A stretch of DNA of 52,904 bases from a virus (taxonomy: Duplodnaviria > Caudoviricetes). The notes below the pieces were generated by a model. The model had not been told where the DNA came from and did not search any database. It saw nothing but the letters and a program-made list of their open reading frames with translations. Location: positions 1 to 52,904 of IMG/VR virus record IMGVR_UViG_3300013123_000008; one strand, given 5' to 3'. Shown one piece after another: positions 18,783 through 49,262 of this stretch. Within the stretch, counting starts at the first letter, position 1; every line of letters begins with the position of its first letter. Position numbers and translations under genes: made by a program.

Positions 18783-19240
18783 AAGAACTAGAAATAGATA
18801 TACGTGAACTTTGGAAAAATAAAAAATGGACATGTATAACTACAAATGGTTATGTAACTACATCAGGTAAATGTGTTATGGGCAGAGGAGTTGCATTAGA
18901 GGCAAAAAATCGATATTCGAATTTACCCACACAACTTGGATCCGCTATTAAAAAATACAATAACAGAGTATTTGTATTTCCGGACTATAAAATTATAACA
19001 TTTCCAGTTAAACATTTTTGGTATGAGACGGCAGATATAGAATTAATTAAGAAATCGTTTAATGAATTAAAAAACATTTTAAATTCACCTTTATTTAATA
19101 TAAAAGAAATTTATTTACCCCGTCCTGGATGTTCAAACGGAAAATTAAAATGGTCAGAAGTTAAAAAAGAATTAGAACCTATTTACGATGATCGAATTAT
19201 ATTTATAAATAAAAAGAAAGAAAAAAATGAAAATAGTTAA
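18779..19240 (+). CDS. Macrodomain (ADP-ribose binding/hydrolase) protein
   Basis: TTN, VMGRGVA, ITFPVKHFW, LPRPGCSNGKLKW. Confidence 0.8.
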   Translation: MKELEIDIRELWKNKKWTCITTNGYVTTSGKCVMGRGVALEAKNRYSNLPTQLGSAIKKYNNRVFVFPDYKIITFPVKHFWYETADIELIKKSFNELKNILNSPLFNIKEIYLPRPGCSNGKLKWSEVKKELEPIYDDRIIFINKKKEKNENS

Positions 19241-19736
19241 AGTTAGAAATGTTAAAACTCCTCATAGAGGAACACCTGGGTCTGCGGGCTTGGATTTTTT
19301 TGTTCCTGAATTTGATCAAAAATTTAAGGATGATTTTAAAGCTAAAAATCCTACAGTTGACATACGCTTTGATATTGATATTAATTCAGAATGTATAGAA
19401 CTTAAACCTCACACACGTGTATTAATTCCATCTGGTGTACATGTGAAATTTCCTAAATCATATGCCCTTATTGCATTTAATAAAAGTGGGGTATCAGTTA
19501 AAACCGGATTAGATCATGGGGCAGAAGTAGTTGACGATGATTATCAAGGTGAAATACATTTAAGTCTTGTTAATACAAGTTTAGAAAATGTATTAATAAA
19601 ACCGAATGATAAAATAATTCAATTTATTTTAATACCTGTATTAATAGAAGATGTATTTGAATTAACTTCATTAGATGAATTATATCCGGCTAAATCTGAA
19701 CGAGGTACAGGTGGTTTTGGTTCAACAAATAAGTAA
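19227..19736 (+). CDS. dut: Trimeric dUTPase
   Basis: SAGLD, KSG, VVDDDYQGE, IIQ, RGTGGFGST. Confidence 0.93.
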   Translation: MKIVKVRNVKTPHRGTPGSAGLDFFVPEFDQKFKDDFKAKNPTVDIRFDIDINSECIELKPHTRVLIPSGVHVKFPKSYALIAFNKSGVSVKTGLDHGAEVVDDDYQGEIHLSLVNTSLENVLIKPNDKIIQFILIPVLIEDVFELTSLDELYPAKSERGTGGFGSTNK

Positions 19737-19778
19737 TATTGGATATATCAGACATATTTATATACATAAGGAAATTAA

Positions 19779-20336
19779 ATGGTTATTATAATTGAAGGAC
19801 CTGATAACGTAGGTAAATCAACTCAAATAAAATTATTAATGAAAAACTTAATAAAACATCCAACATATACCATTCATTTTTCTAACGTACTCGGTATATC
19901 TAATGATGAATCTAAACAATTTAGTAGAATATTATATAATGATATGTTTCATCTGGTGGATGAAGCATTTAAGTTTAATAGAAATATCATATTTGATAGA
20001 GCTCATTTAGGAGAATATGTTTATTCACCTATTTACAGAAACTATTCAGGCGAATTTATTTTTGAAATTGAAAATAGATTTTTAAATACTAGTGGATTTA
20101 AAAGTATAGTTTTGTTTTTAATGGTTGATGATCCAAATAAATTAATTGAAAGAGAAGATGGTAAATCATTTTCTAACAAACTCCATTCTAAAATATTAGA
20201 AAAAAATATGTTTATAGAAGCATATTTTAAAAGTCAAATAAAAAATAAATTTTTAATAGATGTAAATGGTAGGTCTATTACTGAAATTCATAATGAAATA
20301 TTAAATGATTTAAATGGAATAACAAGTGAAGAATAA
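19779..20336 (+). CDS. Thymidylate-kinase-like dNMP kinase
   Basis: IIEGPDNVGKST P-loop, FDRAHLGEYVYSPIYR. Confidence 0.85.
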   Translation: MVIIIEGPDNVGKSTQIKLLMKNLIKHPTYTIHFSNVLGISNDESKQFSRILYNDMFHLVDEAFKFNRNIIFDRAHLGEYVYSPIYRNYSGEFIFEIENRFLNTSGFKSIVLFLMVDDPNKLIEREDGKSFSNKLHSKILEKNMFIEAYFKSQIKNKFLIDVNGRSITEIHNEILNDLNGITSEE

Positions 20337-21453
20337 AATGAAACTTGCCGTAATTAAATTCGGTGGAAGAATTAATGGTAATGGTGATGGCGCTATAGGT
20401 GGAGAAGTATTAATTGCTGTAGATCTTTTAGTAAAAGGTGGTAACGAAGTACATTGTTATACAAAATTGTGTAATAAAGACATCTTAATTAAAGATGTTA
20501 TATTTCATGATTCTTCTACATTTGACCCAAATACTCAATATGATGCTCTAATTGTTATAAATGGTAATATTAATTTTTATGGTGGTTTAACTTCAACTGT
20601 TGAAATGGACAATTTAAAAATTATAAATTCATTTAAAGGTAAAGTTATTTACATGTTATTTGATCCTATGTTACCACTAAAACAATACTGGGATGGCATT
20701 AAAATTAAACAAGATAAATATAACTGGTCAGATAAATACACAGAAAAAGAAATGTTTATAGAACGAGATGATATTATTTATATTTCTCAACCTTATAATC
20801 TTCAGGCAGTAGATACAATTTTACAAAAGACTGGAGTCAAACACAAATACATAGTACACTATCCTTTATATAAGATGCATTTGGCATACTATGATAGATT
20901 AACATTTAATAATAATCCTAGACTTGTAGATTTATCATACGGTGGAACATTTAGAAATAAAAAACGCGAAGATAAACTTATAAAATTTTATTTTGGATAT
21001 CCAGATAACTATAACATAGACATATTTGGTAAAATTAAACTTGATAATTTTACTTCTAAAAAAATTATAAATCTAACAAGTCCTAAATTTACTTCTGGAG
21101 TACCTCATAATCATGTAAGATATAGAATGGAAAAATCTTTAGGTACAGTAGTCATAGGAGATAAATGGTATGAAGGTAAAAATTTAGCACAAAGAGTATA
21201 TGAGAATATTTTATCAAACACTATTAATTTTATCGATTTAGATTTAGATCCTATGAGGTTAGTATATAGTCATGATACTTTTTTTGATATGCTGTATGTC
21301 AAAGACAGAGAAGAAGTTATACGTGTTTTAGATATGATAAAAGAACATCCCGACAGATTAAAAGATATTTGTGATGCCCAATATGATTGTGTATCAATTA
21401 ATAAACAACAATATATAGATGATTTAACAGACATGATAGGAAATTTAACATAA
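20326..21453 (+). CDS. bgt: DNA glycosyltransferase, T4 beta-glucosyltransferase homologue
   Basis: Colinear with recalled T4 BGT: YDALIVINGNINFYGG, YTEKE, ISQ, YGGTFR..KRE.K, IGDK.Y, RVYE, FID...D, YV..REE. Confidence 0.85.
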   Translation: MKNKMKLAVIKFGGRINGNGDGAIGGEVLIAVDLLVKGGNEVHCYTKLCNKDILIKDVIFHDSSTFDPNTQYDALIVINGNINFYGGLTSTVEMDNLKIINSFKGKVIYMLFDPMLPLKQYWDGIKIKQDKYNWSDKYTEKEMFIERDDIIYISQPYNLQAVDTILQKTGVKHKYIVHYPLYKMHLAYYDRLTFNNNPRLVDLSYGGTFRNKKREDKLIKFYFGYPDNYNIDIFGKIKLDNFTSKKIINLTSPKFTSGVPHNHVRYRMEKSLGTVVIGDKWYEGKNLAQRVYENILSNTINFIDLDLDPMRLVYSHDTFFDMLYVKDREEVIRVLDMIKEHPDRLKDICDAQYDCVSINKQQYIDDLTDMIGNLT

Positions 21454-22028
21454 TGAAATTTAATACATATATTGAATACATGAATAAGATTTATACTGAT
21501 TCATTATTTGAAACTGCAGTTGATAATTTTATAGTAGATGCAAAAATGGCAAAACGTATATTTTTTATAGGTAACGGTGGTTCTGCATCATTAGCATCTC
21601 ATTTTGCTCAAGATATTAATAAAGCAACACAACCTAGTTTAAAAATATTTTCAATTCAGAGGACTACTGCTATTTCATTATGTGATAATACTGCATTTAT
21701 TACAGCTTTAGCTAATGATGATGGGTATGAAACAATATTTACACAACAACTTGAAGCTCATAACTTTGATCCATCCCATGATTTATTATTTGCAATATCA
21801 TGTAGTGGTAATTCTAAAAATGTTGTTAATGCAATAAAATATATTCCTTATGAATTACGACAATGTGTTTATATAATGACAGCGTTTAATGGTGGTGAAA
21901 TATGCACATTAGTATCTCCACACCATCATATGCACATCCATACTAATGATATTTATACTGCCGAATCTCTACACTCAGTTTTACATCATTATATTATAAT
22001 TAGATTGATAGAAGGTTATAATGATTAA
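21453..22028 (+). CDS. gmhA: GmhA-like SIS-domain sugar-phosphate isomerase
   Basis: GNGGSASLASH, TALANDDGY..IF..Q, AISCSGNSKNV, E..H motifs. Confidence 0.85.
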   Translation: MKFNTYIEYMNKIYTDSLFETAVDNFIVDAKMAKRIFFIGNGGSASLASHFAQDINKATQPSLKIFSIQRTTAISLCDNTAFITALANDDGYETIFTQQLEAHNFDPSHDLLFAISCSGNSKNVVNAIKYIPYELRQCVYIMTAFNGGEICTLVSPHHHMHIHTNDIYTAESLHSVLHHYIIIRLIEGYND

Positions 22029-23865
22029 TATTCCAAAAGATTTTTTTACTAGTTCTAAACATCCATTTAAAATTTTATTAATTTCAGGCGGGCATGGGTC
22101 ATCTGATTTTATTAAGAAGATATGGGAAAAAGAAGTATATAAAAAGAATATTCAAATTAAAGTATTATTTAATCCATTTGACGACGGTGCTTCTTATGGT
22201 ATAGTTAGAGATAAACTTGGTGTATCATGTTTAGGTGATGGTAGAAAAAATCAATATAATATGTTTTTACAATTATATGGTGATAAATTACCAGATTATG
22301 TAAGAGAAATTTATTATCTTTTATTTGAAAAGCGTCACTCGTTTGCTAGTAGTACAATATACATAGATACATTAGCAACACATATTTGGACTTTACTGGA
22401 AGCACACAAACATCATATAAATGAACCATATCACTTTACAACAGATGGTATTAAAATATTACATATTATTATTGATTCATTAAAACATTTTGCTGAAAAA
22501 GTATATACAAATACCCCGCATGACAGTTTTAATTTATCAAATATGTTTTATGGTATAATGGAGTTATATTCTACAAGTAGTCTTCAGGATTTATTAGATT
22601 CAATTTCACATTCTATATTTTGTTTAGGACCCAATAGTGTCATAACGTCATTAAATGATAGTGCTAGATTAATATCTAGGACAGAAAGAGGTATGACACT
22701 TTCACGTGAAACCCCAGATGTCATTGATTTTAAAAATCATTATAAAGTTGTAGGATATGATAATATTGTTGAACAGAGTATTGACTCATTTGAACAACAT
22801 AAAACTCCATTAAATTATTATATAGATAATAATGTTAAAAATTATATTTTAAATTGTGATTTAATGTTAATATGTCCAGGCACATTGTATAGTTCATTAA
22901 ATCCTACATTCTTAAATTACAATATTTTAGATTTGGTTACAAGATCAAATAGTAAAAAGTATATGTATATTAATGATATACCAGATACTGATTTTATGAC
23001 TAGTGATTATAGTAATTTAGATGAATACTATCGTAACTCGGTATTTAATAAAAACAAAGGTTTAATAGATAAATTTACACTATTACACAAAACCCATACT
23101 AATATTATTAGTGGTAAACAAATATTAAAAGTTGACTATGATAAATTTTTATATAGTTTATTATCTTATTACTTCTTTGATAGGTTAGTAGATTTAAATG
23201 AAATTCACAAGTTAAATTTAATTTTAGATTATGATGGCACAATATATTCATTAACTGATCCAGAAAGTACTGATACAATTGTTACTATAATTAATGATAG
23301 AATAGATTCTGACAAGTTGTTTATATCAACTGGTAACTATGTTATTAGAGAACATACCGTTAAATTAAAGGAACATAAAAATATTTTCCTTTCTAATGTA
23401 TATAATCCCGACCACACCCGTGACGACATTGATTTTTACGCCGGGTTTTTATTGAACAAGGACATAGTTTCACAATTAGATAAATATGAAAAATTGTATC
23501 CAATAGAAAATTTATTATTAAGTGATAGACATAATGATATAATATCTACAATTAAACATGTTAATACACATACTAGACACTTGATAAGTTCTGATTTAAA
23601 TAGAAAATTACTAAATTATGATATTGCACATGGACAACAACATATTCTAACATATTGTTTAGGTAAGACATCAATTGATTTTATTTATTCAGATTATTTA
23701 AAACAAAATTTAGATAAGTTTATAAATTTAAAATTTTCAATTTATATTGGAGATGGAGTAAATAACCCGTATTCAAATGACAGTAAAATTGCAAAAAAAT
23801 GTAAATACGGAGTTAATGTAAAAAGTTTAGTAGAAACATTATTATTTATTGAGGCATGTAATTGA
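22021..23865 (+). CDS. Fusion of a CofD/YvcK (UPF0052)-like domain and a HAD-IIB (phosphomannomutase-like) domain
   Basis: N-term SGGHGS, NPFDDGASYG, GDGRK, PGTLYSSL.P; C-term LDYDGT, STGN, GKTSID, YIGD...SND. Confidence 0.7.
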   Translation: MINIPKDFFTSSKHPFKILLISGGHGSSDFIKKIWEKEVYKKNIQIKVLFNPFDDGASYGIVRDKLGVSCLGDGRKNQYNMFLQLYGDKLPDYVREIYYLLFEKRHSFASSTIYIDTLATHIWTLLEAHKHHINEPYHFTTDGIKILHIIIDSLKHFAEKVYTNTPHDSFNLSNMFYGIMELYSTSSLQDLLDSISHSIFCLGPNSVITSLNDSARLISRTERGMTLSRETPDVIDFKNHYKVVGYDNIVEQSIDSFEQHKTPLNYYIDNNVKNYILNCDLMLICPGTLYSSLNPTFLNYNILDLVTRSNSKKYMYINDIPDTDFMTSDYSNLDEYYRNSVFNKNKGLIDKFTLLHKTHTNIISGKQILKVDYDKFLYSLLSYYFFDRLVDLNEIHKLNLILDYDGTIYSLTDPESTDTIVTIINDRIDSDKLFISTGNYVIREHTVKLKEHKNIFLSNVYNPDHTRDDIDFYAGFLLNKDIVSQLDKYEKLYPIENLLLSDRHNDIISTIKHVNTHTRHLISSDLNRKLLNYDIAHGQQHILTYCLGKTSIDFIYSDYLKQNLDKFINLKFSIYIGDGVNNPYSNDSKIAKKCKYGVNVKSLVETLLFIEACN

Positions 23866-24578
23866 CATCATTTGCAATAATTTTGGCAGCAGGTAAACAA
23901 ACCCGGTTTGATTCTAATATACCTAAGTGTTTATACCCATATAAAAAAGATACTACAAAAACTATTTTAGAAAAAAATATAGAAATTGCGCACGCGTGGG
24001 GGTGTCACGTTGTAGTAGTATTAAATAGTGAAACTGATAATAGTAATATTATAAAAATTTTAAAATTACATAATAATATTAATATTACAATTGTTGATAT
24101 TATATCGGGCAAAGGTACTGGTCATGCAGTATACGAGGCGATAAAGCATTTATATATAAATGATGATGACAAGTGTTTTTTAATGTGGGGTGATTCAATA
24201 CAAGATAATATTGATTTATATAGGTTAACAGACAATGCGTATAATAATATAATGACTGTACCATTAAAAAGAGAAGATAAATGTTATATGAAATTTGTCG
24301 TTGATCCACATACAAGTTTGATTACAGGCGCCTATCACCCTTCAGGTATTGAATCAGGTTATCATGATTATTCATTTTTTTTATTTAATATAAAACATAT
24401 ATTTAACTTATTGTCTATATATGTATCGAAGAGTACTTCTACTATATTTAATAATATATATCCTGAAATAGATTTTATCCAATTATTTAATTTTTATCCA
24501 AATACGTTTAATTCAATTTTTCCAGAATATTCATCTATAAATGCGTTTAATACTATTAAGGAATATGAAGAATTATGA
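23862..24578 (+). CDS. Sugar-1-phosphate nucleotidyltransferase (NTP_transferase / GlmU-N-like)
   Basis: IILAAGKQTRF...PKCL, GTGHAV, MWGD, FNT. Confidence 0.85.
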   Translation: MTSFAIILAAGKQTRFDSNIPKCLYPYKKDTTKTILEKNIEIAHAWGCHVVVVLNSETDNSNIIKILKLHNNINITIVDIISGKGTGHAVYEAIKHLYINDDDKCFLMWGDSIQDNIDLYRLTDNAYNNIMTVPLKREDKCYMKFVVDPHTSLITGAYHPSGIESGYHDYSFFLFNIKHIFNLLSIYVSKSTSTIFNNIYPEIDFIQLFNFYPNTFNSIFPEYSSINAFNTIKEYEEL

Positions 24579-25441
24579 AAATACAAGGTAGTACATTTGC
24601 AGAAATTTATGAACAATTAATAAAAAGTATTTATTTAAATCCAGAATATATTTCATCACCTCGAGGTATGAAAATAAAAGAACAAACTAATTTAGAAATT
24701 ACATTAACTGATCCAACATCAAATTTATTTACCAATGTACATAGAAGTCCAAACCCAAATTATTTATATCCAGAATTACTTTGGTATTTTTTAGGTCGTA
24801 ATGATTTAGATTTTATATCAAATTATTCTAAATTTTGGAATAAACTAACAAACGACGGAATTTTGAATAGCGCATATGGTAATTTATTATTTACTCAGAA
24901 AAATGAACATGGATATTCTGAATATGGGTGGGCACTTGAGTCCTTAATTAATGATAAGGATTCCAGACAATCAATTCTACGATTTAATAAACCTGTTCAT
25001 TCATATAAAGGTAATAAAGATTTTGTATGTACGTTAAATGGAATATTTAATATTAGAAATAATAAATTAAATTTTACTACAACAATGAGGTCACAAGATG
25101 TATGGTTTGGAATAACATATGATATGCCATTTTTTACTATATTAATGCAGCAAGTGTTATTACATTTACAGGAATATTATCCTGATTTGACTTTAGGTAA
25201 GTACGTACACTATGTATTAAGTGAACATATTTATGAAAAAGATTTTAATAATATAGAACAAATGTTATTACATCCTTTTATTCCAGATTCAACACCACTC
25301 GTGAAATATAATCTGATAGATAAATATTGTAAACCATCCGATAAATTGTTATACGCATTAAATACACGTAATGTATTACTTCCTGAATACACTAATGACG
25401 ATCTTATAAATAATATTATTAAGTATTTAAAAATCAAATGA
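24575..25441 (+). CDS. Thymidylate synthase homologue, probably a dCMP hydroxymethylase-type enzyme
   Basis: SAYG, DSRQ, DFVCT catalytic Cys, MRSQDVWFGITYD (Asp at the dUMP/dCMP specificity position), HIYE. Confidence 0.8.
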   Translation: MKIQGSTFAEIYEQLIKSIYLNPEYISSPRGMKIKEQTNLEITLTDPTSNLFTNVHRSPNPNYLYPELLWYFLGRNDLDFISNYSKFWNKLTNDGILNSAYGNLLFTQKNEHGYSEYGWALESLINDKDSRQSILRFNKPVHSYKGNKDFVCTLNGIFNIRNNKLNFTTTMRSQDVWFGITYDMPFFTILMQQVLLHLQEYYPDLTLGKYVHYVLSEHIYEKDFNNIEQMLLHPFIPDSTPLVKYNLIDKYCKPSDKLLYALNTRNVLLPEYTNDDLINNIIKYLKIK

Positions 25442-25929
25442 CAACAGATAAACAAATTAAACTTGATCATGTGTTTATGAATATTGCGTATCAATTTGCA
25501 TCTTTATCAAATTGTGTATCACACAAAGTTGGTGCTATCGCGGTTAAAGATGGAAGAATTGTTTCAACCGGATATAATGGAAGTTTGGTGGGAATGATGA
25601 ACTGTTGTGAGTTATTTCCTAATTATAATAAATTAACAGATAGAAATTTACATCATTGTTGGAGTAATGACCATGAAATACATGCAGAGATGAATGTGAT
25701 TTTATATGCAAGTAAACATGGTATATCTTTAGATGGGTCGACATTATATACAACTGTTCATCCTTGTAATCAGTGTTTAAAAAATATATTACATGTTGGA
25801 ATAACAACGATTAATTATGATGTTGATTATGATCTAAGTACAAAAAGTAATATGATGCAAGATTATATAACAAAAAATAAAATTAAAATACGCAAATTAA
25901 TTAAAATACGCGGAGACTCAAATGAATAA
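25438..25929 (+). CDS. dCMP deaminase
   Basis: KVGA, STGYNG, HAEMN, PCNQC. Confidence 0.92.
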   Translation: MTTDKQIKLDHVFMNIAYQFASLSNCVSHKVGAIAVKDGRIVSTGYNGSLVGMMNCCELFPNYNKLTDRNLHHCWSNDHEIHAEMNVILYASKHGISLDGSTLYTTVHPCNQCLKNILHVGITTINYDVDYDLSTKSNMMQDYITKNKIKIRKLIKIRGDSNE

Positions 25930-26425
25930 ACAAATAAGAAATAATGTTAATACAAGCATAACAGGTGTACTTGAATTTGATTCAGATTGTAAAGTAAATT
26001 CTAATGTTGATAATAATTTACAATCTACCCAACTTCATACATTACCAAGTGATGAATTTGTAAATTTTAAATTATCATTATCACCGGAGGATATTGAACT
26101 CGTCCACAATATGGAAACTAAATATCCACAGATGACGGAAGAATTTAAACGTATTTGCACAACTCAATATTTAATGTTCCTCAGAAAACAAAATGACTAT
26201 GGTCCAAGTAATATTACATTTAATTCAGATTTAAACGATGAACAAGATCTTAGATTAAGTTTAACAGGTATTGTTGTAAGATTGAATGATAAAATTAATA
26301 GATTAGTTAATTTAATTCTTAAAAAAAATAAAACCTTAAACGAATCTGTTGAAGATTCTTTTTTGGACATGAGTGTTTATTCTAAAATAGCTCTTATAGT
26401 GTCGTCTAAGAAATGGGGTAAATAG
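25922..26425 (+). CDS. Nucleotide-modification-associated domain 1 (DUF1599-like) protein
   Basis: KQNDYG, VRLNDKINRL, ESVEDSFLD..VY. Confidence 0.75.
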   Translation: MNKQIRNNVNTSITGVLEFDSDCKVNSNVDNNLQSTQLHTLPSDEFVNFKLSLSPEDIELVHNMETKYPQMTEEFKRICTTQYLMFLRKQNDYGPSNITFNSDLNDEQDLRLSLTGIVVRLNDKINRLVNLILKKNKTLNESVEDSFLDMSVYSKIALIVSSKKWGK

Positions 26426-27291
26426 TGATACGCCTATCCTATTCTCAATTTAATACATGGAAGGCATGCCCATATCATTGGAAAGTAGCTTATATAGATA
26501 AAGTAAAAACCAAAACTCAGAACATACATTCATTATTTGGTACTGCACTTCATATAACGTTACAAGATTATCTTACATTTTATTATAATAAAACCATTAG
26601 AGAATCAAATGAATTAAATCTTCATGAAATGCTTCTTAAGAACATGTTGAAAGAAATGGAAATATGTGAGACGGAAGGAATAGAAAATTCTATTACTCAG
26701 GCAGAATTGATGGAATTTTATGAAGATGGTATGAAAATTCTAACTTGGTTTAGAAAAAATGTTTCTTTATATTTTGGTAAAAAAAATATGGTCTTACACG
26801 GATGTGAAATACCATTAGAAACTGATTTAGGGAATGGTAGTCAATTTATTGGTAAAATGGATATAGTTATTGAGGATAGAGACCAAAGTGTAATAAAGAT
26901 TATTGATTTTAAAAAATCATATAGGGGATGGCATGAAAATGCAAAAAAAGATCTAATGAAAAAAGGACAATTACAACTTTATAAATACATGTATTCTATG
27001 CAATTTGGTACACCTATTAAAAACATAGATATAGAATTTTTAATATTAAAACAAAAGGTAAATGAACTATCGGAATTTGCAAATGCTAGAAAACGAGTAC
27101 AAAAATTTGAACCGCCGTCTGGTAAAATTGTACTTAATAAAATATTTGACGAATTTATGAATTTTTCTAATACTGTTACTAAGAATGGTGAATACAACGT
27201 TGATATTGAATATCTTCCAACCCCTTCTAAAAAATCGTGTGAATATTGTCCATTTAAAAACAACAAAGAAATTTGTAATGTAGGAGTATAA
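26425..27291 (+). CDS. PD-(D/E)XK exonuclease (RecB/Cas4-like)
   Basis: LSYSQ...CP, GTALH, GKMD, IIDFK, QLQLY, C-terminal CEYCPF..C. Confidence 0.85.
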   Translation: MIRLSYSQFNTWKACPYHWKVAYIDKVKTKTQNIHSLFGTALHITLQDYLTFYYNKTIRESNELNLHEMLLKNMLKEMEICETEGIENSITQAELMEFYEDGMKILTWFRKNVSLYFGKKNMVLHGCEIPLETDLGNGSQFIGKMDIVIEDRDQSVIKIIDFKKSYRGWHENAKKDLMKKGQLQLYKYMYSMQFGTPIKNIDIEFLILKQKVNELSEFANARKRVQKFEPPSGKIVLNKIFDEFMNFSNTVTKNGEYNVDIEYLPTPSKKSCEYCPFKNNKEICNVGV

Positions 27292-28112: not shown

Positions 28113-28664
28113 ATGATTAATGGTTACGAACATATACCTAAATTACAAAGAAAAAATATACTTTTATTGTCTGATGACTTGAGATTGTTTTCTGGTATAG
28201 GTACAATGTCTAGACAATTTGTTCTAGGTACTGCACATAGATACAATTGGTATCAAGTTGGTGCAGCAATTAATCATCCAGACACAGGCAAACGGATAGA
28301 TATATCTGAAGATGTAAATAAACATATAGGTATAAATGATTCTCAAATATATATTCAACCATATAATGGATATGGTGATCCTGATTTAATTAGAGCATTG
28401 ATGACTGAATTTAAATTTGATGCACTAATGCATTTTACAGATCCTAGACAATTTATTTGGTTATATCAGATGGCTCATGAAATTAGACAAAAGATTCCTA
28501 TTCTTTATTATAATATATGGGATAATTTACCATACCCAATGTATAATAAAGCGTATTATGAATCATGTGATGCATTGTTTTCAATATCGCGTCAAACATT
28601 TAATATTAATAAAGTTGTTCTAGGTGAAGATAATTTTACAATTATAAGGGATGTCAATGAGTAA
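28113..28664 (+). CDS. GT4-type glycosyltransferase, N-terminal half
   Basis: ILLLSDD...SGIGT, FTDPRQF.W, YYNIWD, YESCD. Confidence 0.75.
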   Translation: MINGYEHIPKLQRKNILLLSDDLRLFSGIGTMSRQFVLGTAHRYNWYQVGAAINHPDTGKRIDISEDVNKHIGINDSQIYIQPYNGYGDPDLIRALMTEFKFDALMHFTDPRQFIWLYQMAHEIRQKIPILYYNIWDNLPYPMYNKAYYESCDALFSISRQTFNINKVVLGEDNFTIIRDVNE

Positions 28665-29538
28665 GCCATATCTATCATATATACCACATGGTATTAACCC
28701 AACTGAATATTATAAAATTCAACCTGAAGATTTAGAATATAAAGAATTAATAGAATTTAGAAATAAACTATTCAATAATAAAGATTATGAATTTGTTATT
28801 CTTTTTAATAACAGAAATATAAGAAGAAAAAATACAAGTAATATAATATTAGCATTTAATGATTTTTGTAAAAAATATTCTAAAGAAATAAATAGTAAGT
28901 TTGCATTAGTATTACATACTCAGACAATAGATCCTAATGGTACTGATTTATTTGCAGTTAAAAATGCAGTATGTAAAGACTATAATGTTATTTTTCATGA
29001 AGATAGATTACATCCTAAAGAATTAAATTTTCTTTATAATATTAGTGATGTAACTATTAATGTAGCTTTTGCTGAAGGTTTTGGTTTATCCACTGCCGAA
29101 TCACTTATGGCCGAAACAATGATAATTGCTACGGTTACTGGAGGTCTTCAAGACCAAATGGGATTTAGAGATGACGCAGGGCATTTGTTATGTTTTACAA
29201 AAACTTGGCCATCTAATCATAATGCATTAATAAAAACTCACGGCGATTGGGCAATACCCATATATCCGGTTGTACACAATTTAACAGGTTCTCCACCAAC
29301 CCCTTATATATTTGATGACCATACTTCAATACATGATATAACCTTTGCATTAGATAATGTATTTTCTATAGGAAAACAGGTTAGAGATAAAAACGGTAAA
29401 GAAGGTCGCAAATTTATGTTATCTAAAGAATCTAAAATGAGTACAGAATCAATGTGTAATACATTTATGTCTGATATAGAATTTGTGTTAAATAATTGGA
29501 CACCACAACCCCGATATGAAATGTTGAGGTTTGAATGA
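28651..29538 (+). CDS. GT4-type glycosyltransferase, C-terminal half
   Basis: YIPHGIN, NRNIRRK, EGFGLSTAESL, TGGLQDQ. Confidence 0.85.
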   Translation: MSMSKPYLSYIPHGINPTEYYKIQPEDLEYKELIEFRNKLFNNKDYEFVILFNNRNIRRKNTSNIILAFNDFCKKYSKEINSKFALVLHTQTIDPNGTDLFAVKNAVCKDYNVIFHEDRLHPKELNFLYNISDVTINVAFAEGFGLSTAESLMAETMIIATVTGGLQDQMGFRDDAGHLLCFTKTWPSNHNALIKTHGDWAIPIYPVVHNLTGSPPTPYIFDDHTSIHDITFALDNVFSIGKQVRDKNGKEGRKFMLSKESKMSTESMCNTFMSDIEFVLNNWTPQPRYEMLRFE

Positions 29539-29780
29539 AAAAAAAATTAAGTGAAAAATTAAAAAATGTTTGGTTATATATAACTTTTAATTTATTACAC
29601 ATGTCTATTAAATTTAAAGTATATAAATGGTTGTATTTTATTAAATGTATATTTAGTTTAAATAATAAATTGGACCCAATTATAAATATCCAAAATTTAG
29701 AAATAACAGATCTTAACAAAACATTAAATAAATTAATAAATAACCCATCAGTAATATTGGACAGAAAATATGATAACTAA
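29535..29780 (+). CDS. Hypothetical protein
   Basis: 81-aa ORF with ATGA overlap. Confidence 0.45.
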   Translation: MKKKLSEKLKNVWLYITFNLLHMSIKFKVYKWLYFIKCIFSLNNKLDPIINIQNLEITDLNKTLNKLINNPSVILDRKYDN

Positions 29781-31107
29781 ACAACTATTACTTTTTATTG
29801 CACCTGTAAATTCTAGATCTGGATATGGGGAACATTCTCGTGATATTTTGAGGTCATTGATAAAAATAAATAAAAAAACTGATAAATATGAAATACATGT
29901 TTTACCTATTAAATGGGGTATGACTCCATTAAATGTACTTAAAGAAGGTATAGATGATGATATATTAAATTTAATTTTAAAGATACCACATTTAGATAGA
30001 AAACCCGATATATCTATTCAACTAACTGTACCAAATGAATTTAACTCTGGCATTGCAAATTTTAATATTGGAATTACAGCAGGTATTGAAACTACGATGT
30101 GTTCAGCTCAATGGATTGAAGGTATGAACCGTATGAATTTTAATATTGTCCCATCAAATTTTGCTAAAAGTGTATTTGAAAATACAAATTATATAAAGCA
30201 AATTAATGGTAAAAATGTTGGAGAAACACTAAAATGTGTTAAACCTATCTTTGTTTTATTTGAAGGTGTAGACGATAAGGTATATGGTAAATCAAATAAT
30301 ACTGTAACTGATATTAAATTTGATTTGAATAAAATTAAAGAAGACTTTGTATTTTTATTTGTAGGGCATTGGTTAAATGGTGATATAGGACAAGATAGAA
30401 AAGATGTTGGAATGTTAATTAAAGTATTTATGGAAACATTTAAGATTACTCCTAACCCGCCTGCATTATTATTAAAAACTGGATCTGTATTTTCTAAAAT
30501 AGAAAGAGAAGAAATATATACAAAAATAAATGCAATTAAGTCAAGTGTGAAATTGGAAAATAATCAACATATACCTAATGTTTATGTTATTTTTGGTGAT
30601 TTAACTTCAAATGAAATAAATTCACTATATAATCATTCTAAAGTTAAAGCACATGTTACCTTTACTAAAGGCGAAGGTTTTGGCAGACCGTTATTAGAAG
30701 CAAGTTTAAGTGAGAAAATTATAATAGCTAGTGGGTTTAGTGGTCACACAGACTTCTTACCATCTACTGATTGTATTTTATTACCAGGTTCTGTTGAACC
30801 AGTTCATTCGTCGGCAGTTTGGCAAGGTGTTATTGAAAAAGATTCAACGTGGTTTACTGTTAATTATCAAGTTGCATCTAATGCATTACGCCAAGTATGG
30901 AAAAATCCTAGTTCATTCACACACAGAGCTAAAAATTTAGCTAAAAATACATTAAATAAATTTACATTAGATAAAATGACAGACGAACTTGAAAGAATAT
31001 TAAATGAAAATATAAAAAATATACCTGTATTCCAAGAGATGATACTACCTGAACTCAAATTTCCTAAACTTCCAAAACTAACTAAAATAGAGAAAATAAA
31101 TGAATAA
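29770..31107 (+). CDS. GT4 (GT-B) glycosyltransferase
   Basis: SRSGYG, GITAGIET, FLFVGHW, DRKD, GEGFGRPLLEA. Confidence 0.88.
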   Translation: MITKQLLLFIAPVNSRSGYGEHSRDILRSLIKINKKTDKYEIHVLPIKWGMTPLNVLKEGIDDDILNLILKIPHLDRKPDISIQLTVPNEFNSGIANFNIGITAGIETTMCSAQWIEGMNRMNFNIVPSNFAKSVFENTNYIKQINGKNVGETLKCVKPIFVLFEGVDDKVYGKSNNTVTDIKFDLNKIKEDFVFLFVGHWLNGDIGQDRKDVGMLIKVFMETFKITPNPPALLLKTGSVFSKIEREEIYTKINAIKSSVKLENNQHIPNVYVIFGDLTSNEINSLYNHSKVKAHVTFTKGEGFGRPLLEASLSEKIIIASGFSGHTDFLPSTDCILLPGSVEPVHSSAVWQGVIEKDSTWFTVNYQVASNALRQVWKNPSSFTHRAKNLAKNTLNKFTLDKMTDELERILNENIKNIPVFQEMILPELKFPKLPKLTKIEKINE

Positions 31108-31348
31108 ACTAAAATATAAACATTTAACAACTAATGCAGTTGTATATGCTGAAAGAATATTAACAAAACGTACTATAAAGATGATTCTAAATGAATCACA
31201 AGACTCGAATGAAGTAGTTGCAAATGAAGATGATATATTAGTAAGCTATTTTAATGCATCAACAGATACAATAATCAAACAAGTATTATTAAAAGAAAAT
31301 GTTTTTATATCACAATATGTACCAATAAAACAATTATTAATGGATTAA
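31100..31348 (+). CDS. Hypothetical protein
   Basis: 82-aa ORF in the operon. Confidence 0.55.
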   Translation: MNKLKYKHLTTNAVVYAERILTKRTIKMILNESQDSNEVVANEDDILVSYFNASTDTIIKQVLLKENVFISQYVPIKQLLMD

Positions 31349-31349
31349 T

Positions 31350-31814
31350 ATGGAAAAAACATTATGCCCGTGTTGTTCCACTAATAATGTTATAACAGAA
31401 GAAGTAAAACACAAATCTAATACTAGTGTTGTATATAGTTATTTATGTGTTAAGTGTGGATATAGTTCTAATTCATTATTTACAATTGGTAGTGAATCTT
31501 TAAATTCATTTTTTACAACTAATGATAAACAATTAGTTGTTAACCTGAATTATTTTGATGAGTCTACAGGTCTTTATTGGTTTCCTGTTATATTTTTGCA
31601 TGTAACAGGTGCCTTATTTCCAGAAGGCACTGTTGATAATTGGTATTGGGCTTATGTACCAATTATAAAAATAGAAGAAGATGAAAAAGAAAAATATGGT
31701 ACAGAATATAAGACTAGATTTGCAGTTGATAAAATGGAAAAATTTGATAAACTAGATTTTTTAGAAGCATGCAAGAAATTATTTACAATAGATAAAATGA
31801 TAACAGTAGATTAA
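31350..31814 (+). CDS. Zinc-finger hypothetical protein
   Basis: CPCC...CVKCGY, WFP, LFPEG..DNW.W. Confidence 0.7.
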   Translation: MEKTLCPCCSTNNVITEEVKHKSNTSVVYSYLCVKCGYSSNSLFTIGSESLNSFFTTNDKQLVVNLNYFDESTGLYWFPVIFLHVTGALFPEGTVDNWYWAYVPIIKIEEDEKEKYGTEYKTRFAVDKMEKFDKLDFLEACKKLFTIDKMITVD

Positions 31815-31815
31815 T

Positions 31816-32268
31816 ATGAATAGTTTTATTAATGAACACAGGACTAAGATTAAAGGATATACAGTATCTAAATTTAATTACATTAAAATGGGAAATGTAA
31901 TTCGGTTTTCATATCCAAGCGAAACAAATAAATACCCACATGTATTCGTTTTAAATCCGCGATATCAGGGAAAATTGCATGGTCTTGTTGTTGATTATAT
32001 AAATCCAAGGTTATTTAATAAATTAAAAGATTTTATTATATCTGAAGCTGAAGAAGTAGAACCTGGTACACCAAATGATTTGGTTATATCATTGAGAGAG
32101 TTAAGTAAAAATTCTCAAACTCCAATGTCATTTTATGATATTAGATTAAAACCATTTATTAAAAAATATTTAAATGGTATTAATTGTTATAGAACATATG
32201 ATATTGTTAAAATTGGTAATCTTAATAAAGTAAATTATGTATTTAGTAAATACAAAGAAGTATTATGA
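31816..32268 (+). CDS. Possible T4 gp2-like DNA end protector
   Basis: YP.VFVL...LHGL..DYI, FY...K, CYRTY pattern; weak similarity. Confidence 0.4.
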   Translation: MNSFINEHRTKIKGYTVSKFNYIKMGNVIRFSYPSETNKYPHVFVLNPRYQGKLHGLVVDYINPRLFNKLKDFIISEAEEVEPGTPNDLVISLRELSKNSQTPMSFYDIRLKPFIKKYLNGINCYRTYDIVKIGNLNKVNYVFSKYKEVL

Positions 32269-32882
32269 GTATCAGTTTTGCAATAACTGTTAAAGATGAA
32301 ATAGATGAAATTAAAGCACTAGTTGAATTATTATTAAGATATAAATCAACTGATGATGAAATAGTAATCCTTCAAGATATAACTACACATGATCGTAGTG
32401 TTAGAGAATATCTGGCTAATGAAGAACGAGTTACAAAATACATATTTAAATTTGATAATGATTTTTCTAAAATGAAAAATTATATGAATTCAGTTTGTGT
32501 GAAAGATTGGATATTTAATATTGACGCAGATGAATTACCACATGAGTGGTTATTAACAAATTTACCTAAAATATTAAGTAATAATACTACATTAGATGCA
32601 ATATGGGTACCAAGAATTAATATTGTAACTGGAATTACAGAAGAACATATTAGTAAATGGGGTTGGAAGGTTAACAGCCAAGGTTGGATAAACTGGCCGA
32701 ATGATCCGCAATGCAGAATATATAAAAATAGAGCAGATATATATTGGGATAAGAAAGTTCACGAACAACTTATGGGTGGGCGTGTGATAGGTAAATTACC
32801 AGATTTAGAAGAATATTCTATATATCATATTAAAGATATTAAACGACAAGAACAACAAAATAATTTTTATAATACATTATGA
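32265..32882 (+). CDS. GT2 glycosyltransferase
   Basis: ISFAITVKDE, WIFNIDADE, VPRIN, KVHE. Confidence 0.88.
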   Translation: MSISFAITVKDEIDEIKALVELLLRYKSTDDEIVILQDITTHDRSVREYLANEERVTKYIFKFDNDFSKMKNYMNSVCVKDWIFNIDADELPHEWLLTNLPKILSNNTTLDAIWVPRINIVTGITEEHISKWGWKVNSQGWINWPNDPQCRIYKNRADIYWDKKVHEQLMGGRVIGKLPDLEEYSIYHIKDIKRQEQQNNFYNTL

Positions 32883-33724
32883 ATGATTTAACATTTTGCA
32901 TATCAACTTATAATAATCTAGAATATCTAAAAATAGCAATTAAATCGGTTAGAAAAAATAGTTATTTTAAAGATGCACCTTTTATTATTCATGCTGAAAA
33001 TTGTACAGATGGTACAGATGAATGGTTAGGCGAATATTGTGGTCAATACAATTTACAATATTACATAGAAAAAAATGAAATACCAGTTGGTATTGGTGGA
33101 GGTATGAATTTTTGTGCAGATAAAGTTAAAACTAAATATATAAATTTTCTACATTCAGATTTTTATGTAACTAGAGATTGGGATTTAGAATTATTAAAAA
33201 TACATGACAAATATCCAGATGAAAAGCTATGGGTAAATTCGTTTAGAGTTGAACCTAATATATTTAATTCAACAATTAGACCTGGTACATATTTTGTAGA
33301 TAGAGATGTATTTGGTTCATATTGGTATAATTTTAATTCATCTTTATTTGATGAATGGTCTATTAATCTGACTAATATGGGTGATTTTGAAATACCTAAG
33401 GGTGAGGGTGTTAGTGGTTTAGTTAAAAAATCTGTTTGGGATGAAGTTGGTGGAAATGACCCAATATTTGCACCAACAAGTTGGGATGACATGGATTTAT
33501 TTTTACGTATGTTACAACGCGGAGTTAGGTTTATAATGCCAATTAAATCGGTAGTGTGGCATTTTGGTGGAAGAGGTTCTCATAGACTTGAAGAAAATAA
33601 TGGCGTAACGTCTGAAAGACAAAAAATTTCAGAAAATAGAAATTATGTTAAGTTTATACATAAATGGGATGGAAAACCTATATTTGATAAATATGGTATG
33701 ATTGCCGGGATAGAAAAATTTTGA
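32879..33724 (+). CDS. GT2 glycosyltransferase
   Basis: ISTYN, TDGT, FLHSD, VGG.D, WDDMD, WHFG. Confidence 0.85.
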   Translation: MNDLTFCISTYNNLEYLKIAIKSVRKNSYFKDAPFIIHAENCTDGTDEWLGEYCGQYNLQYYIEKNEIPVGIGGGMNFCADKVKTKYINFLHSDFYVTRDWDLELLKIHDKYPDEKLWVNSFRVEPNIFNSTIRPGTYFVDRDVFGSYWYNFNSSLFDEWSINLTNMGDFEIPKGEGVSGLVKKSVWDEVGGNDPIFAPTSWDDMDLFLRMLQRGVRFIMPIKSVVWHFGGRGSHRLEENNGVTSERQKISENRNYVKFIHKWDGKPIFDKYGMIAGIEKF

Positions 33725-34212
33725 AAACTTTAATTTATAAAAATAAAAAATATCCACTATTCCAGTCTAGTGGTTATGCTGCTAAATTTGCAATACCATA
33801 CGCGCAAACAATGTGTAATGGTAAAGGGTATGATATTGGGTGTATGAAAAAAGAATGGGCATTTCCTACTTCTATACCAATAGATTTAAATTTTAATAAC
33901 GGGTTTAATGCAACCAATTTACCGGAAAATAATGTTGATTATATATTTTCAAGTCATTGTTTAGAACATATTCCAAACTGGGTATATGTTATGGAATATT
34001 GGTATAGTGTTTTACGTGTCGGCGGTATACTTTTTTTATATTTACCAGATTATTCTCAAGAGTATTGGAGACCATGGAATAATAAAAAACATTTACATAT
34101 ATTTTCACCTCAGATAATCGAAGATGTTATGATACATTTAAGTTATATAAATATATTTAAATCTGGGATTGATTTAAATAATTCATTTATGATATGTGGT
34201 GAAAAAGCATGA
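33721..34212 (+). CDS. Class I SAM-dependent methyltransferase
   Basis: DIGC, DYIFSSHCLEH, LRVGG.LFLYLP. Confidence 0.85.
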   Translation: MKTLIYKNKKYPLFQSSGYAAKFAIPYAQTMCNGKGYDIGCMKKEWAFPTSIPIDLNFNNGFNATNLPENNVDYIFSSHCLEHIPNWVYVMEYWYSVLRVGGILFLYLPDYSQEYWRPWNNKKHLHIFSPQIIEDVMIHLSYINIFKSGIDLNNSFMICGEKA

Positions 34213-35036
34213 ATGTCGTAATAACTGGTTATACGGGGTTTTTGGGTAAAAATATTTTAGAATATTTTCAATATTTCGATAATACTAATTTTTTATTAAT
34301 AGATAGAGATTATAATAAAATTAAAGATATAAAAAAATTTAAACCAGATTACATATTTCATTTCGGTGCAGAAATATACGATTATACTAAAATGTTTTCA
34401 GCAAATATCGAATTTACATATCTACTATTAGAAGAAATTAAAGATATAGATTTTAAATTATTTGTTAATTGTGGTTCATCATCAGAATATGGTAATAAAA
34501 TAAAACCAATGTCAGAACATGATGTCATAATACCACAGAATTTATATGATGCTACAAAATCTTCTGCTACATTATTAAGTACAGCTTTTGCTAAAATGTA
34601 TAATAAACCTATTATTACAATACGTCCATTTTCTGTATATGGCAAATATGAAAAAGAACATAGATTTATTCCTACAATTTTTAGAAAATTTTTTAATAAT
34701 GAAGAAATTACAATATATGACGGTGTACATGATTTTATACATATAAATGATTTTATTAATTCAATTGATTTAATACTTAAATCAAATAATACAATAGGCG
34801 ATATAATTAATATAGGAACAGGTATACAGCATAGTAATATGTATGTATATGACACAATGTGTAATATTTTTTCATACACAATTCCTATTATACACTATAA
34901 TTACAAATTAAAAAATACTGATTCTGATGTATGGGTATCAGATACATCATACTGTATAAATAAATATAATTTTAGTCCAAAATATAATTTATATGAAGGG
35001 TTAATGCTGGAATATGCACGTAGAAGTAATACATAA
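34209..35036 (+). CDS. NAD-dependent epimerase/dehydratase
   Basis: TGYTGFLG, GSSSEYG, YDATK, RPFSVYG, DFIHI.D. Confidence 0.92.
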   Translation: MNVVITGYTGFLGKNILEYFQYFDNTNFLLIDRDYNKIKDIKKFKPDYIFHFGAEIYDYTKMFSANIEFTYLLLEEIKDIDFKLFVNCGSSSEYGNKIKPMSEHDVIIPQNLYDATKSSATLLSTAFAKMYNKPIITIRPFSVYGKYEKEHRFIPTIFRKFFNNEEITIYDGVHDFIHINDFINSIDLILKSNNTIGDIINIGTGIQHSNMYVYDTMCNIFSYTIPIIHYNYKLKNTDSDVWVSDTSYCINKYNFSPKYNLYEGLMLEYARRSNT

Positions 35037-35634: not shown

Positions 35635-35636
35635 TA

Positions 35637-36322: not shown

Positions 36323-36324
36323 AT

Positions 36325-36798: not shown

Positions 36799-36800
36799 TA

Positions 36801-39519: not shown

Positions 39520-39525
39520 ATTGTT

Positions 39526-44719: not shown

Positions 44720-44849
44720 ATTTAATTAACAATATCACTTTTTAGTTTAATTATTGTTTTAATAAATATGTTAGAGCGAATTACATTCAAACAAATGAAC
44801 ATTGGACTAAACGTTGGAAAAAAGTAAAATTAATTAATGAAAGTGCAAA

Positions 44850-46578: not shown

Positions 46579-46581
46579 TAT

Positions 46582-48770: not shown

Positions 48771-48788
48771 CAAAATTTATTTTTAATT

Positions 48789-49254: not shown

Positions 49255-49262
49255 CAATATTT

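Follow-up and report, generated by a model that had tools for sequence, protein, structure and literature searches.

Nine closely spaced genes at positions 19227-26425 of IMG/VR virus record IMGVR_UViG_3300013123_000008 appear to form an operon for DNA hypermodification. Our reading, to which we give a probability of roughly 0.55, is that the operon makes DNA containing 5-hydroxymethylcytosine (5hmC) that bears a sugar, probably a heptose, from a donor built by the phage itself. The complete record of 52,904 bases, a T4-like phage fragment with approximately 26% G+C and an estimated completeness of 28%, was analyzed and is called the window below. Within the operon, the genes for a GmhA-like isomerase (a single-SIS protein), a 614-aa fusion of a CofD-like domain with a HAD domain, and a sugar nucleotidyltransferase (NT) are translationally coupled and embedded between the gene for a homologue of the T4 beta-glucosyltransferase (BGT) and that for a thymidylate synthase (TS) homologue. 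The most interesting element is the virus-specific family to which the fusion belongs, more than the heptose idea.

Probable modified base and DNA glycosyltransferase

The initial annotation had described this run of genes, and all nine open reading frames (ORFs) were recovered there on the plus strand, which also carries the rest of the window's genes. Neighbouring ORFs overlap by 1-11 nt, and the sole gap is 42 nt (19736/19779). The Pfam and PHROG assignments hold (Table 1), with the DUF1599 match, at 22.8 bits, falling under the Pfam cut-off of 25 bits; phrog_1485, matched by the same protein, is a PHROG without known function.

Among solved structures, the TS homologue was closest to the CMP hydroxymethylase MilA (3.5e-22) and also matched T4 dCMP hydroxymethylase (4.1e-13), while true thymidylate synthases scored about 1e-4 or worse (about 2e-4 for ThyA). 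The motifs DFVCT and RSQDVWFGITYD supply D143, C146, D169 and D177 in the numbering of E. coli ThyA, which was based on the spacing of Cys+23 and +31 plus a gap-free alignment to T4 1b49. All four residues were present in 29/29 TS homologues (that of the window and 28 from related loci, near-duplicates included). D177 agrees with the earlier description of this protein as an Asp-type, cytosine-specific TS homologue, and the full set is the pattern published for hydroxymethylases, namely Cys146, Asp177 for cytosine, Asp or Glu at 143, and a retained Asp169 (PMC13326640). The same paper determined that RB69 and DLP3 DNA contains arabosylated 5-hydroxycytosine, not 5hmC, that the MilA-like TS homologues of these phages (Asp177, Glu143) are flavin-linked 5-hydroxy-dCMP synthases, and that Asn at ThyA position 169 (D169N) marked such synthases in every case its authors tested. 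The comparison with RB69 in the initial annotation is therefore outdated, since those phages arabinosylate 5-hydroxycytosine from a D169N homologue and the window lacks D169N. As the window protein and each of its 28 related homologues have Asp169, an RB69-type 5-hydroxy-dCMP synthase was rejected. By this published diagnostic, the Asp169 signature leads us to read the TS homologue as a hydroxymethylase, and the modified base is very likely 5hmC.

The nucleotide supply genes fit around this enzyme. The Tmk-like kinase is the presumed 5hm-dCMP kinase; a kinase of the same type adjoins a glycosyltransferase (GT) and a TS homologue in RB69, DLP3 and RL38J1 (PMC13326640, Table 1). The dUTPase-family enzyme would supply dUMP and may double as a dCTPase. 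Its homologues start the same operon in three related contigs (L004, L005 and L029).

The 375-aa BGT homologue matched T4 BGT (1bgt) with an E value of 2.3e-33 over residues 55-357. It has an Asp aligned with that of the T4 motif FTDIRLP and retains the motifs GG(S/T)FR..RE and RV(W/Y)E, which we take to be, respectively, the catalytic Asp and the nucleotide-binding Arg and Glu residues. With both domains of the fold present, these features place the protein in the T4 BGT family, and from its sequence it can be expected with good confidence to act on 5hmC DNA. Its identity was 57-59% to the nearest relatives (L004, L005 and L029), 34-59% to module-bearing loci generally (28% for L069), 37-40% to the jumbo phages RsoM2USA and LR756500, and 30% or less to the BGTs of T4-like phages.

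The proposed donor-synthesis module

The structure of the fusion was predicted with AlphaFold from a 104-sequence alignment, with a predicted local distance difference test score (pLDDT) of 89.6 and a predicted template modelling score of 0.91; with 4 close sequences as input, the pLDDT was 49.9, too low for use. The HAD half had no Pfam match at E<=0.01 and was recognized by its fold and by the motifs DYDGT (403-407), STGN, an invariant Lys and GDGVNN..ND. Its fold is PMM-like or Cof-like, and matches to phosphomutases and phosphatases tie. For the phosphomutase proposed in the initial annotation, the fold supports a HAD sugar-phosphate enzyme without singling out a mutase. The N-terminal domain has many invariant polar residues and a fold nearer to GlmR than to CofD. 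It differs from both GlmR/YvcK and CofD/FbiA in being virus-specific and always fused to HAD, and neither a yvcJ-glmR-yvcL operon nor an F420 context accompanies it. GlmR/YvcK is a stand-alone protein of about 320 aa with a DD motif required for uridylyltransfer. Identity as CofD/FbiA, the F420 phospho-lactyl transferase, was rejected, as no CofC/FbiD-type partner was among the listed matches of the NT profile and there is no F420 context.

A search of 1.84 billion representative proteins gave 225 relatives of the fusion at E<=0.001; the majority are 540-640 aa long and match end to end. ESM Atlas clusters of the two-domain fusion were 81-100% viral, and a 773-aa cluster, with CofD in 98% of its members and NTP_transf_3 in 13%, was 100% viral and most commonly from Nucleocytoviricota. 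Only RsoM2USA and LR756500 carry the fusion among 50,697 GenBank phage records. The available passages of the RsoM2USA paper list BGT and TS genes without DNA chemistry; the partner NT of this phage was not located, its locus ending at the start of the record and no whole-record search having been made. In the main texts searched, we found no link between CofD/YvcK/GlmR-like proteins and DNA modification.

The NT belongs with sugar-1-phosphate nucleotidyltransferases of the GlmU N-domain type. A 30-sequence profile matched GlmU uridylyltransferase domains best in the PDB (1.1e-16), then other sugar-1-phosphate transferases, and matched 6jq8, a protein of the 6-deoxy-mannoheptose pathway, at 2.4e-9. 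The window protein reads ILAAGKQTRF..IPK, in keeping with the N-terminal signature G-x-G-x-R...K of that type, and A10, G11, R15 and K22 are invariant in the family. No CofC or FbiD was among the PDB matches listed for the profile (best 60 of 64), which, with the match to GlmU, weakens a CofC/CofD analogy for the NT and the N-terminal domain of the fusion.

The isomerase was correctly named GmhA-like in the initial annotation, as 15/15 PDB matches were phosphoheptose isomerase or DiaA (best 1.5e-14) and the best NCBIfam models were gmhA, with scores well under the cut-offs of these models. It represents a divergent subfamily with the invariants H50, D54, E171, H174 and H179, which includes bacterial proteins of 43-47% identity labelled at source as D-sedoheptulose-7-phosphate isomerase. 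No arabinose-5-phosphate isomerase was among its 15 PDB or 8 NCBIfam matches, although no direct comparison was made. A 41% relative of this gene was also seen at L073:7890-8492, in a 121.9-kb viral contig, with no other cluster genes nearby.

An IMG/VR scan with the fusion-family alignment yielded 69 loci, or 71 with the 2 GenBank loci; a scan with the single fusion sequence yielded no matches. Genes were counted in these loci by tblastn with the window proteins at E<=1e-4 (Table 1), near-duplicate contigs included (56 of 68 fusion sequences were distinct). Many contigs end near the module, so absences are soft. The order BGT, a variable slot, CofD-HAD, NT was kept across loci, and NT was usually the next gene after CofD-HAD. 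Of the 50,697 GenBank phage records, 122 have BGT-like genes, compared to 42 of the 71 loci, which were chosen solely by a CofD-HAD relative and have the same order; the co-occurrence of BGT and CofD-HAD therefore exceeds chance. Seven representative loci (128 ORFs) all had a T4-type BGT, and no other GT family was among the 25 families listed, which include every family matching at least 2 ORFs; the remaining 24 have at most 1 member each. In L010, the CofD-HAD and NT pair is flanked on both sides by genes for TET-associated glycosyltransferases (TAGT; 2.7e-29 and 2.1e-37), which have BLAST cluster-mates in L019, L044 and L052. TAGT enzymes have been shown to glycosylate 5hmC in DNA (PMC8256090). 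With BGT in some loci and TAGT in others, the module accompanies two unrelated classes of 5hmC-DNA glycosyltransferase.

In 14 loci, the module is a single ORF of 764-837 aa with CofD-HAD first, and a C-terminal NT was shown for 12 of these by tblastn, BLASTP or Pfam. Such forms were commonest in giant-virus bins. The initial annotation had suggested that the CofD-like domain further decorates the transferred sugar, which is disfavoured; fusion to HAD, and in these 14 loci to NT, makes a part in donor synthesis more likely.

What lies in the slot separating BGT from the fusion differs: an S-adenosylmethionine (SAM) methyltransferase in L014 (8192-9004) and L047 (7976-8998), with BLAST cluster-mates in L016, L033 and L061, a uracil-DNA glycosylase superfamily-like protein in L007 (8405-8944) and L008, and several ORFs of no family elsewhere. 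SIS fills it only in the window lineage. This variation suggests a cassette system, with a variable tailoring position that diversifies the modification. No SIS gene was found in the 71 other loci by tblastn or by a profile hidden Markov model over six frames at E<=1. Of the genes whose co-occurrence the initial annotation proposed to check, BGT with CofD-HAD and NT recurs elsewhere, but the GmhA-like gene was found only in the window and one sister contig and is a lineage-specific addition outside the conserved core.

That sister, metagenome contig L074 (5,231 nt), has the same gene order, with identities of 66% for SIS, 65% for the fusion, 45% for NT, 69% for TS, 32% for the deaminase, 79% for Nmad1 and 74% for a PD-(D/E)XK nuclease. 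A third relative with fusion and SIS is suggested by P0004 (fusion, 52%) and P0156 (SIS, 55%), both of which list a longest contig of 30,200 nt. By flanking genes, the next relatives of the window are L004, L005 and L029, in which the order of genes is the same throughout at 48-66% identity but SIS is lacking. Their fusions are only 23-26% identical to that of the window, and the NT is 36% identical in L004 and L005 with no match in L029. In L029 (9001-10881), the TS homologue comes immediately after a 645-aa CofD-HAD, and no NT was detected between the two, unlike in L004 and L005. In a quick maximum-likelihood tree (midpoint root, Shimodaira-Hasegawa-like approximate likelihood ratio test support only, careful search unfinished), the window and L074 fusions paired with 100% support, and the stem that separates this pair from the 54 other members measured 3.68+1.44 changes per column; the L004 and L029 fusions fell inside an ordinary clade. 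Gain of the isomerase thus coincided with drastic divergence or replacement of the cassette, a pattern that would fit a change of substrate.

Two other arrangements were observed among the loci. In one large group of trio-bearing loci, with many very large contigs, NT is followed by a guanylate-kinase-like gene, which forms a BLAST cluster across 14 loci, and by a MazG/PRA-PH pyrophosphatase, seen in 12 (for example L015:11602-12261 and L020:12252-12797). The two probably act as kinase and dCTPase in the phages concerned. In L037 (7417-9011) and its relatives L038, L070 and L072, which lack a BGT or TAGT match, a short-chain dehydrogenase/epimerase-like gene and a 298-aa ORF without a Pfam match precede CofD-HAD and NT, and a DNA polymerase III beta-like clamp and a RecU-like gene follow. 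The 298-aa ORF could be an unrecognized transferase.

Proposed pathway and competing explanations

In the proposed pathway, the TS homologue would convert dCMP to 5hm-dCMP before replication, as in T4, and the Tmk-like kinase would phosphorylate the product, while the dUTPase-family enzyme and dCMP deaminase would balance the dUMP and dTMP pools and the phage B-family polymerase would incorporate 5hm-dCTP. The GmhA-like isomerase would convert a ketose phosphate, most likely sedoheptulose-7-phosphate, to an aldose phosphate (D-glycero-D-manno-heptose-7-phosphate), which the 614-aa fusion would turn into a sugar-1-phosphate. The GlmU-like NT would then make the nucleoside diphosphate (NDP)-sugar, probably a UDP-sugar, and the BGT-fold enzyme would transfer the sugar to 5hmC in DNA after replication. 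That the module supplies the donor for BGT is somewhat more probable than the reading as a whole; heptose as the sugar, suggested by the sequence of the isomerase, is a tentative assignment. Gene content and co-occurrence agree with the earlier proposal of a self-made donor, with isomerase, HAD mutase or phosphatase, and NT feeding the BGT-fold transferase.

For the fusion, the chemistry we prefer is phosphorylation of O1 by the GlmR/CofD-fold domain to a 1,7-bisphosphate, from which the HAD domain would remove or relocate the distal phosphate. The same kinase/phosphatase logic is found in HldE/GmhB, in AfhE/AfhF and in the HAD-APH fusion of the system called "contig 53". In number and kind, the parts correspond to a known three-step route from a sugar-6/7-phosphate to an NDP-sugar, with anomeric phosphorylation, distal phosphate removal and nucleotidyl transfer, which is used for ADP/GDP-heptose (PMC11573728), for UDP-arabinose in HY126, RB69 and DLP3 (PMC13326640) and, judged from its domains, in "contig 53". 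A phosphotransferase is the role that we tentatively favour for the GlmR/CofD-fold domain, because the domain occupies the place of the kinase in comparable pathways. If the HAD domain were a true mutase, such a phosphotransferase could provide its bisphosphate primer. A GlmR-like second nucleotidyltransferase is somewhat unlikely and a CofD-type phospho-sugar transferase quite improbable; a regulatory or other role is an alternative. GlmR is reported to make UDP-N-acetylglucosamine (UDP-GlcNAc), and its D40A/D41A/N198A triple mutant was approximately 100-fold less active (PMC10128056).

Phage-made NDP-sugars placed on C5-hydroxylated cytosine by a DNA glycosyltransferase are already known, and heptose on 5hmC has a precedent based on mass. 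The T4 system for glucosylation (gp42 dCMP hydroxymethylase, gp1 kinase, gp56 dCTPase, and alpha- and beta-glucosyltransferases) shares with the window the TS-fold hydroxymethylase signature, supply of the base before replication, a BGT-fold transferase, a dCMP deaminase and a T4-type replication module. However, the window kinase is Tmk-like and not gp1-like, no gp56-type dCTPase was found in the window part of the genome, and T4 uses host UDP-glucose, whereas in the window three or four genes for donor synthesis separate BGT from the TS homologue. Another comparable system is "contig 53" of a 2023 preprint, whose products of 449 and 641 u, by mass mono- and di-heptosyl-5-methylcytosine, required each of three components: a HAD-APH fusion, a cytidylyltransferase and a T4-betaGT-like GT (10.1101/2023.12.21.572611). 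Heptose on 5hmC is therefore not unprecedented, although the enzyme set is different. Both systems have a T4-betaGT-like GT, a bifunctional HAD-containing fusion and a nucleotidyltransferase, but in "contig 53" 5hmC comes from a methyltransferase and 5mYOX after replication and heptose-7-phosphate from the E. coli host, whereas the window has a GlmR/CofD-HAD fusion, a GlmU-like NT, a TS-derived base and its own GmhA-like isomerase. The term CofD is absent from the main text of that paper.

The arabinosyl-5-hydroxycytosine system of RB69, DLP3 and HY126 (PMC13326640) likewise combines a Tmk-like kinase, a GT and a TS homologue with a SIS isomerase, HAD and NT that make its own NDP-sugar. It differs in having a D169N hydroxylase and an arabinose-5-phosphate isomerase (D169 and GmhA-like in the window), a fusion of NT and kinase (AfhE) with a separate HAD (AfhF), compared to GlmR/CofD-HAD with a separate NT, and BshA/MshA-type GT-B enzymes in place of BGT. 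Bacterial NDP-heptose synthesis (GmhA, HldE or HddA, GmhB, HldE or HddC) also leads from a GmhA-family isomerase to a sugar-1-phosphate and an NDP-sugar. GmhB is a capless HAD enzyme, whereas the window HAD is of the C2B-cap (PMM/Cof) type and the NT resembles GlmU more than HddC. An anomeric heptose-7-phosphate kinase (HldE N-domain or HddA), as in the canonical pathway, is also missing: neither PfkB nor GHMP kinases were found in the 50 of 58 plus-strand ORFs of at least 90 aa scanned with Pfam, the window being approximately 28% of the genome. Enzymes of the NDP-heptose pathway are known in viruses, and both UDP- and CDP-heptose exist (PMC11573728). The TAGT clusters (PMC8256090) are comparable through L010, in which TAGT genes, with cluster-mates in the loci named above, flank the CofD-HAD and NT pair; the window has BGT in place of TAGT and a TS-type in place of a TET-type source of 5hmC.

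Several explanations compete with heptosylation by a phage-built donor. With base and transferase as proposed, the sugar could be an ordinary hexose or hexosamine (glucose, mannose or GlcNAc). The conserved trio would then boost UDP-sugar supply for a large genome by means of a PGM/PMM-like mutase and a GlmU-like uridylyltransferase, with the GlmR-like part as an accessory transferase or a regulator, and the GmhA-like enzyme would make a hexose-6-phosphate, for example mannose-6-phosphate from fructose-6-phosphate. The closeness of the NT profile to GlmU and the PMM/alpha-PGM-like HAD fold fit this, as do a SIS protein below the gmhA cut-off with altered active-site residues and a core that, with SIS in 0/71 other loci, must start from a common host sugar phosphate. 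We nevertheless regard it as unlikely; the 15 solved SIS relatives include no hexose isomerase, the closest cellular relatives are labelled as sedoheptulose-7-phosphate isomerase, isomerase gain coincides with the extreme divergence of the fusion, suggesting a change of substrate, and the window has transketolase-like genes. It is distinctly unlikely that BGT uses host UDP-glucose to make plain glucosyl-5hmC while the phage NDP-sugar goes to downstream GTs, whether for a DNA glycan or for host O-antigen or virion glycoproteins. In its favour, a glycan island that spans 28113-41389 downstream encodes at least 7 GTs along with methyltransferases and an epimerase/dehydratase; lipopolysaccharide (LPS)-type GT genes, which are many in T4-like aquatic myophages, were assigned by their describers to host-surface alteration (PMC7029224); and BGT has nucleotide-binding motifs as in T4 and is 57-59% conserved across relatives with a different cassette. 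Against such a split of substrates, BGT is the sole recurrent GT beside the trio in the 7 representative loci, the trio is translationally coupled in its place from BGT to the TS homologue, and in other loci TAGT DNA glycosyltransferases are its partners.

A phosphodiester-linked decoration would result if the GlmR/CofD-like domain transferred sugar-1-phosphate from the NDP-sugar to 5hmC or to a first sugar with release of the nucleoside monophosphate. This would give each of the three domains a role, and the invariant polar residues suggest catalysis and the constant pairing with NT recalls CofC with CofD. We consider it very improbable, as the NT is GlmU-like with no CofC/FbiD among the matches listed, the N-terminal domain is nearer to GlmR, the HAD fusion suggests consecutive small-molecule steps, and the single-ORF forms are commonest in giant-virus bins, where a general role in donor synthesis fits better. 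To our knowledge, hmC DNA is not known in giant viruses. In a heptose form of this decoration, given the same low probability, the phage would make an NDP-heptose and the fusion enzyme would join heptose-1-phosphate in phosphodiester linkage to 5hmC or a first sugar. The DNA would then have a teichoic-acid-like decoration, perhaps extended by the adjacent GTs and methyltransferases. Lastly, synthesis of 5-hydroxy-dCMP and addition of arabinose, as in RB69 and DLP3, is extremely improbable, even though MilA is the best solved relative of the TS homologue, as it is for RB69 gp48 and DLP3 gp80, and the layout of kinase, GT, TS homologue, SIS isomerase, HAD and NT is similar. Position 169 is Asp, not Asn, in 29/29 homologues, D169N having marked every tested 5-hydroxy-dCMP synthase (PMC13326640); the SIS protein is GmhA-like, with no arabinose-5-phosphate isomerase among its matches; and no APH-like kinase domain is attached to NT. 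RB69-type arabinosyl-5-hydroxycytosine was rejected on D169 and the GmhA-like SIS.

A number of observations also weigh against our preferred reading of heptosyl-5hmC from a phage-built donor. The core module is without an isomerase in 71/71 other loci. The SIS protein scored 71.5 bits (7.7e-20) against gmhA TIGR00441, for which the cut-off is 209, and in the alignment its D54 and E171 replace the Glu and Gln of C. jejuni GmhA, which, with two His, we take to be catalytic or metal-binding positions; it may therefore use another ketose phosphate. BGT is 57-59% identical to the BGTs of L004 and L029 despite their very different, SIS-less sugar cassettes, so the transferase may not be tuned to the product of the cassette. 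We know of no kinase activity in the CofD/GlmR family, and the activities found for it comprise phospho-lactyl transfer by CofD/FbiA and the uridylyltransfer reported for GlmR (PMC10128056). The further GTs (at least 7), epimerase/dehydratase and two methyltransferases of the glycan island could be the real consumers of the donor, and no gp56-type dCTPase was found among the 50 window ORFs scanned. The near-duplicates and truncated contigs noted above also bear on the locus counts. Every substrate is inferred, as are the heptose, the role of the GlmR/CofD-like domain and the donor nucleotide; gene content, signatures, folds, synteny and fusions are observed.

Neighbouring genes and significance

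Family scans placed a T4-type replication module upstream of the operon (Table 1). The DUF1599/Nmad1-like gene was kept in L004, L005, L029 and L074. A PD-(D/E)XK nuclease gene is translationally coupled to it, and its membership in the pathway is uncertain.

Table 1. Features of the window, with the number of the 71 related loci having a homologue
Feature	Coordinates	Strand	Matches and remarks	Related loci
Upstream replication module		+	gp32-like, RecA/UvsX-like, 5'-3' exonuclease, DnaB-like helicase, class II ribonucleotide reductase, DEAD/Helicase_C_2 helicase, B-family polymerase, clamp-loader large subunit, clamp-loader A subunit	
dUTPase-family pyrophosphatase	19227..19736	+	Pfam dUTPase 9.5e-20; phrog_135 1.7e-34	7/71
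Tmk-like P-loop dNMP kinase	19779..20336	+	Thymidylate_kin 6.3e-9; phrog_761 2.7e-14	29/71
T4 BGT-fold DNA glycosyltransferase	20326..21453	+	T4-Gluco-transf PF09198 1.7e-17; phrog_7922 beta-glucosyltransferase 6.7e-51, residues 5-356	42/71
GmhA-like single-SIS sugar-phosphate isomerase, divergent subfamily	21453..22028	+	SIS_2 1.6e-8	0/71
CofD-HAD fusion, 614 aa	22021..23865	+	Pfam CofD 5.1e-11, residues 18-321 only	
Fusion, N-terminal GlmR/YvcK/CofD-fold domain (residues 1-388)	22021..23184	+		
Fusion, C-terminal HAD type IIB (C2B-cap) sugar-phosphate mutase/phosphatase domain (residues 393-614)	23197..23865	+		
GlmU-like sugar-1-phosphate nucleotidyltransferase (NT)	23862..24578	+	NTP_transf_3 1.3e-8	54/71
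TS homologue with dCMP hydroxymethylase signature	24575..25441	+	Thymidylat_synt 5.3e-17	28/71
dCMP deaminase	25438..25929	+	dCMP_cyt_deam_1 2.6e-20; phrog_174 3.3e-48	7/71
DUF1599/Nmad1-like protein	25922..26425	+	PF07659 1.1e-4; phrog_1485 2.2e-18	3/71
PD-(D/E)XK nuclease	26425..27291	+	PDDEXK_1 1.6e-21; syntenic in L004, L005, L029, L074	
GT-B glycosyltransferase, encoded by two ORFs that overlap in different frames (183 + 295 aa)	28113-28664, 28651-29538	+	Glycos_transf_1 1.3e-8, second ORF	
GT1	29770-31107	+		
GT2 (four)	32265-32882, 32879-33724, 39526-40269, 40226-41389	+		
Methyltransferases (SAM and FkbM types)	33721-34212, 35903-36322	+		
NAD-dependent epimerase/dehydratase	34209-35036	+	5e-30; also GDP_Man_Dehyd 7.8e-17	
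Transketolase-like, short, separated by methyltransferase	35014-35634, 36325-36798	+	Transketolase_N 4e-9, Transket_pyr 1e-10	
GT8 (weak)	37397-38161	+		

In the downstream island, the GT-B homologue is a single 482-aa ORF in L004 (15302-16750), so a frameshift, genuine or introduced by the assembly, has split it in the window. It is possibly a second-sugar transferase. In L021, a 785-aa ORF directly after NT has an N-terminal part resembling the first ORF of the split GT (41%). Transketolase makes sedoheptulose-7-phosphate, and the transketolase-like ORFs of the window, though short and split, therefore fit the heptose route.

Farther downstream, positions 43673-47313 include an RNA ligase (T4 Rnl1 type, 2.2e-17), a polynucleotide kinase-phosphatase (HAD_PNKP 4.7e-45) and a metallophosphoesterase; the ligase and the kinase-phosphatase are a tRNA-repair pair adjoining the tRNA array. 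A D12-class N6-adenine DNA methyltransferase (1.5e-20) in the same stretch implies a second DNA modification, N6-methyladenine. The 3' end (48697-52553, approximately 35% G+C) has 20 tRNA genes and a predicted transfer-messenger RNA (50544-50943, tag AEKSNTFVTPTGELVREYEYALAA).

The sugars on its cytosines determine whether a phage can be attacked by particular restriction, CRISPR and type IV systems, and the list of such sugars is growing fast: glucose, arabinose on 5-hydroxycytosine, and hexoses, N-acetylhexosamine, Kdo and heptose on 5hmC. The present analysis adds a conserved, virus-specific set of three domains (GlmR/CofD-like, HAD and GlmU-like) that accompanies two unrelated classes of 5hmC-DNA glycosyltransferase. 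Dozens of phage contigs have this set, many of which are very large (340-460 kb) or from T4-like phages. Solving the chemistry of this module would explain a supply for DNA glycosylation that is independent of host donors and would give the GlmR/CofD fold a second clear biochemical context. It would also show whether the window lineage heptosylates its genome without a classical kinase.

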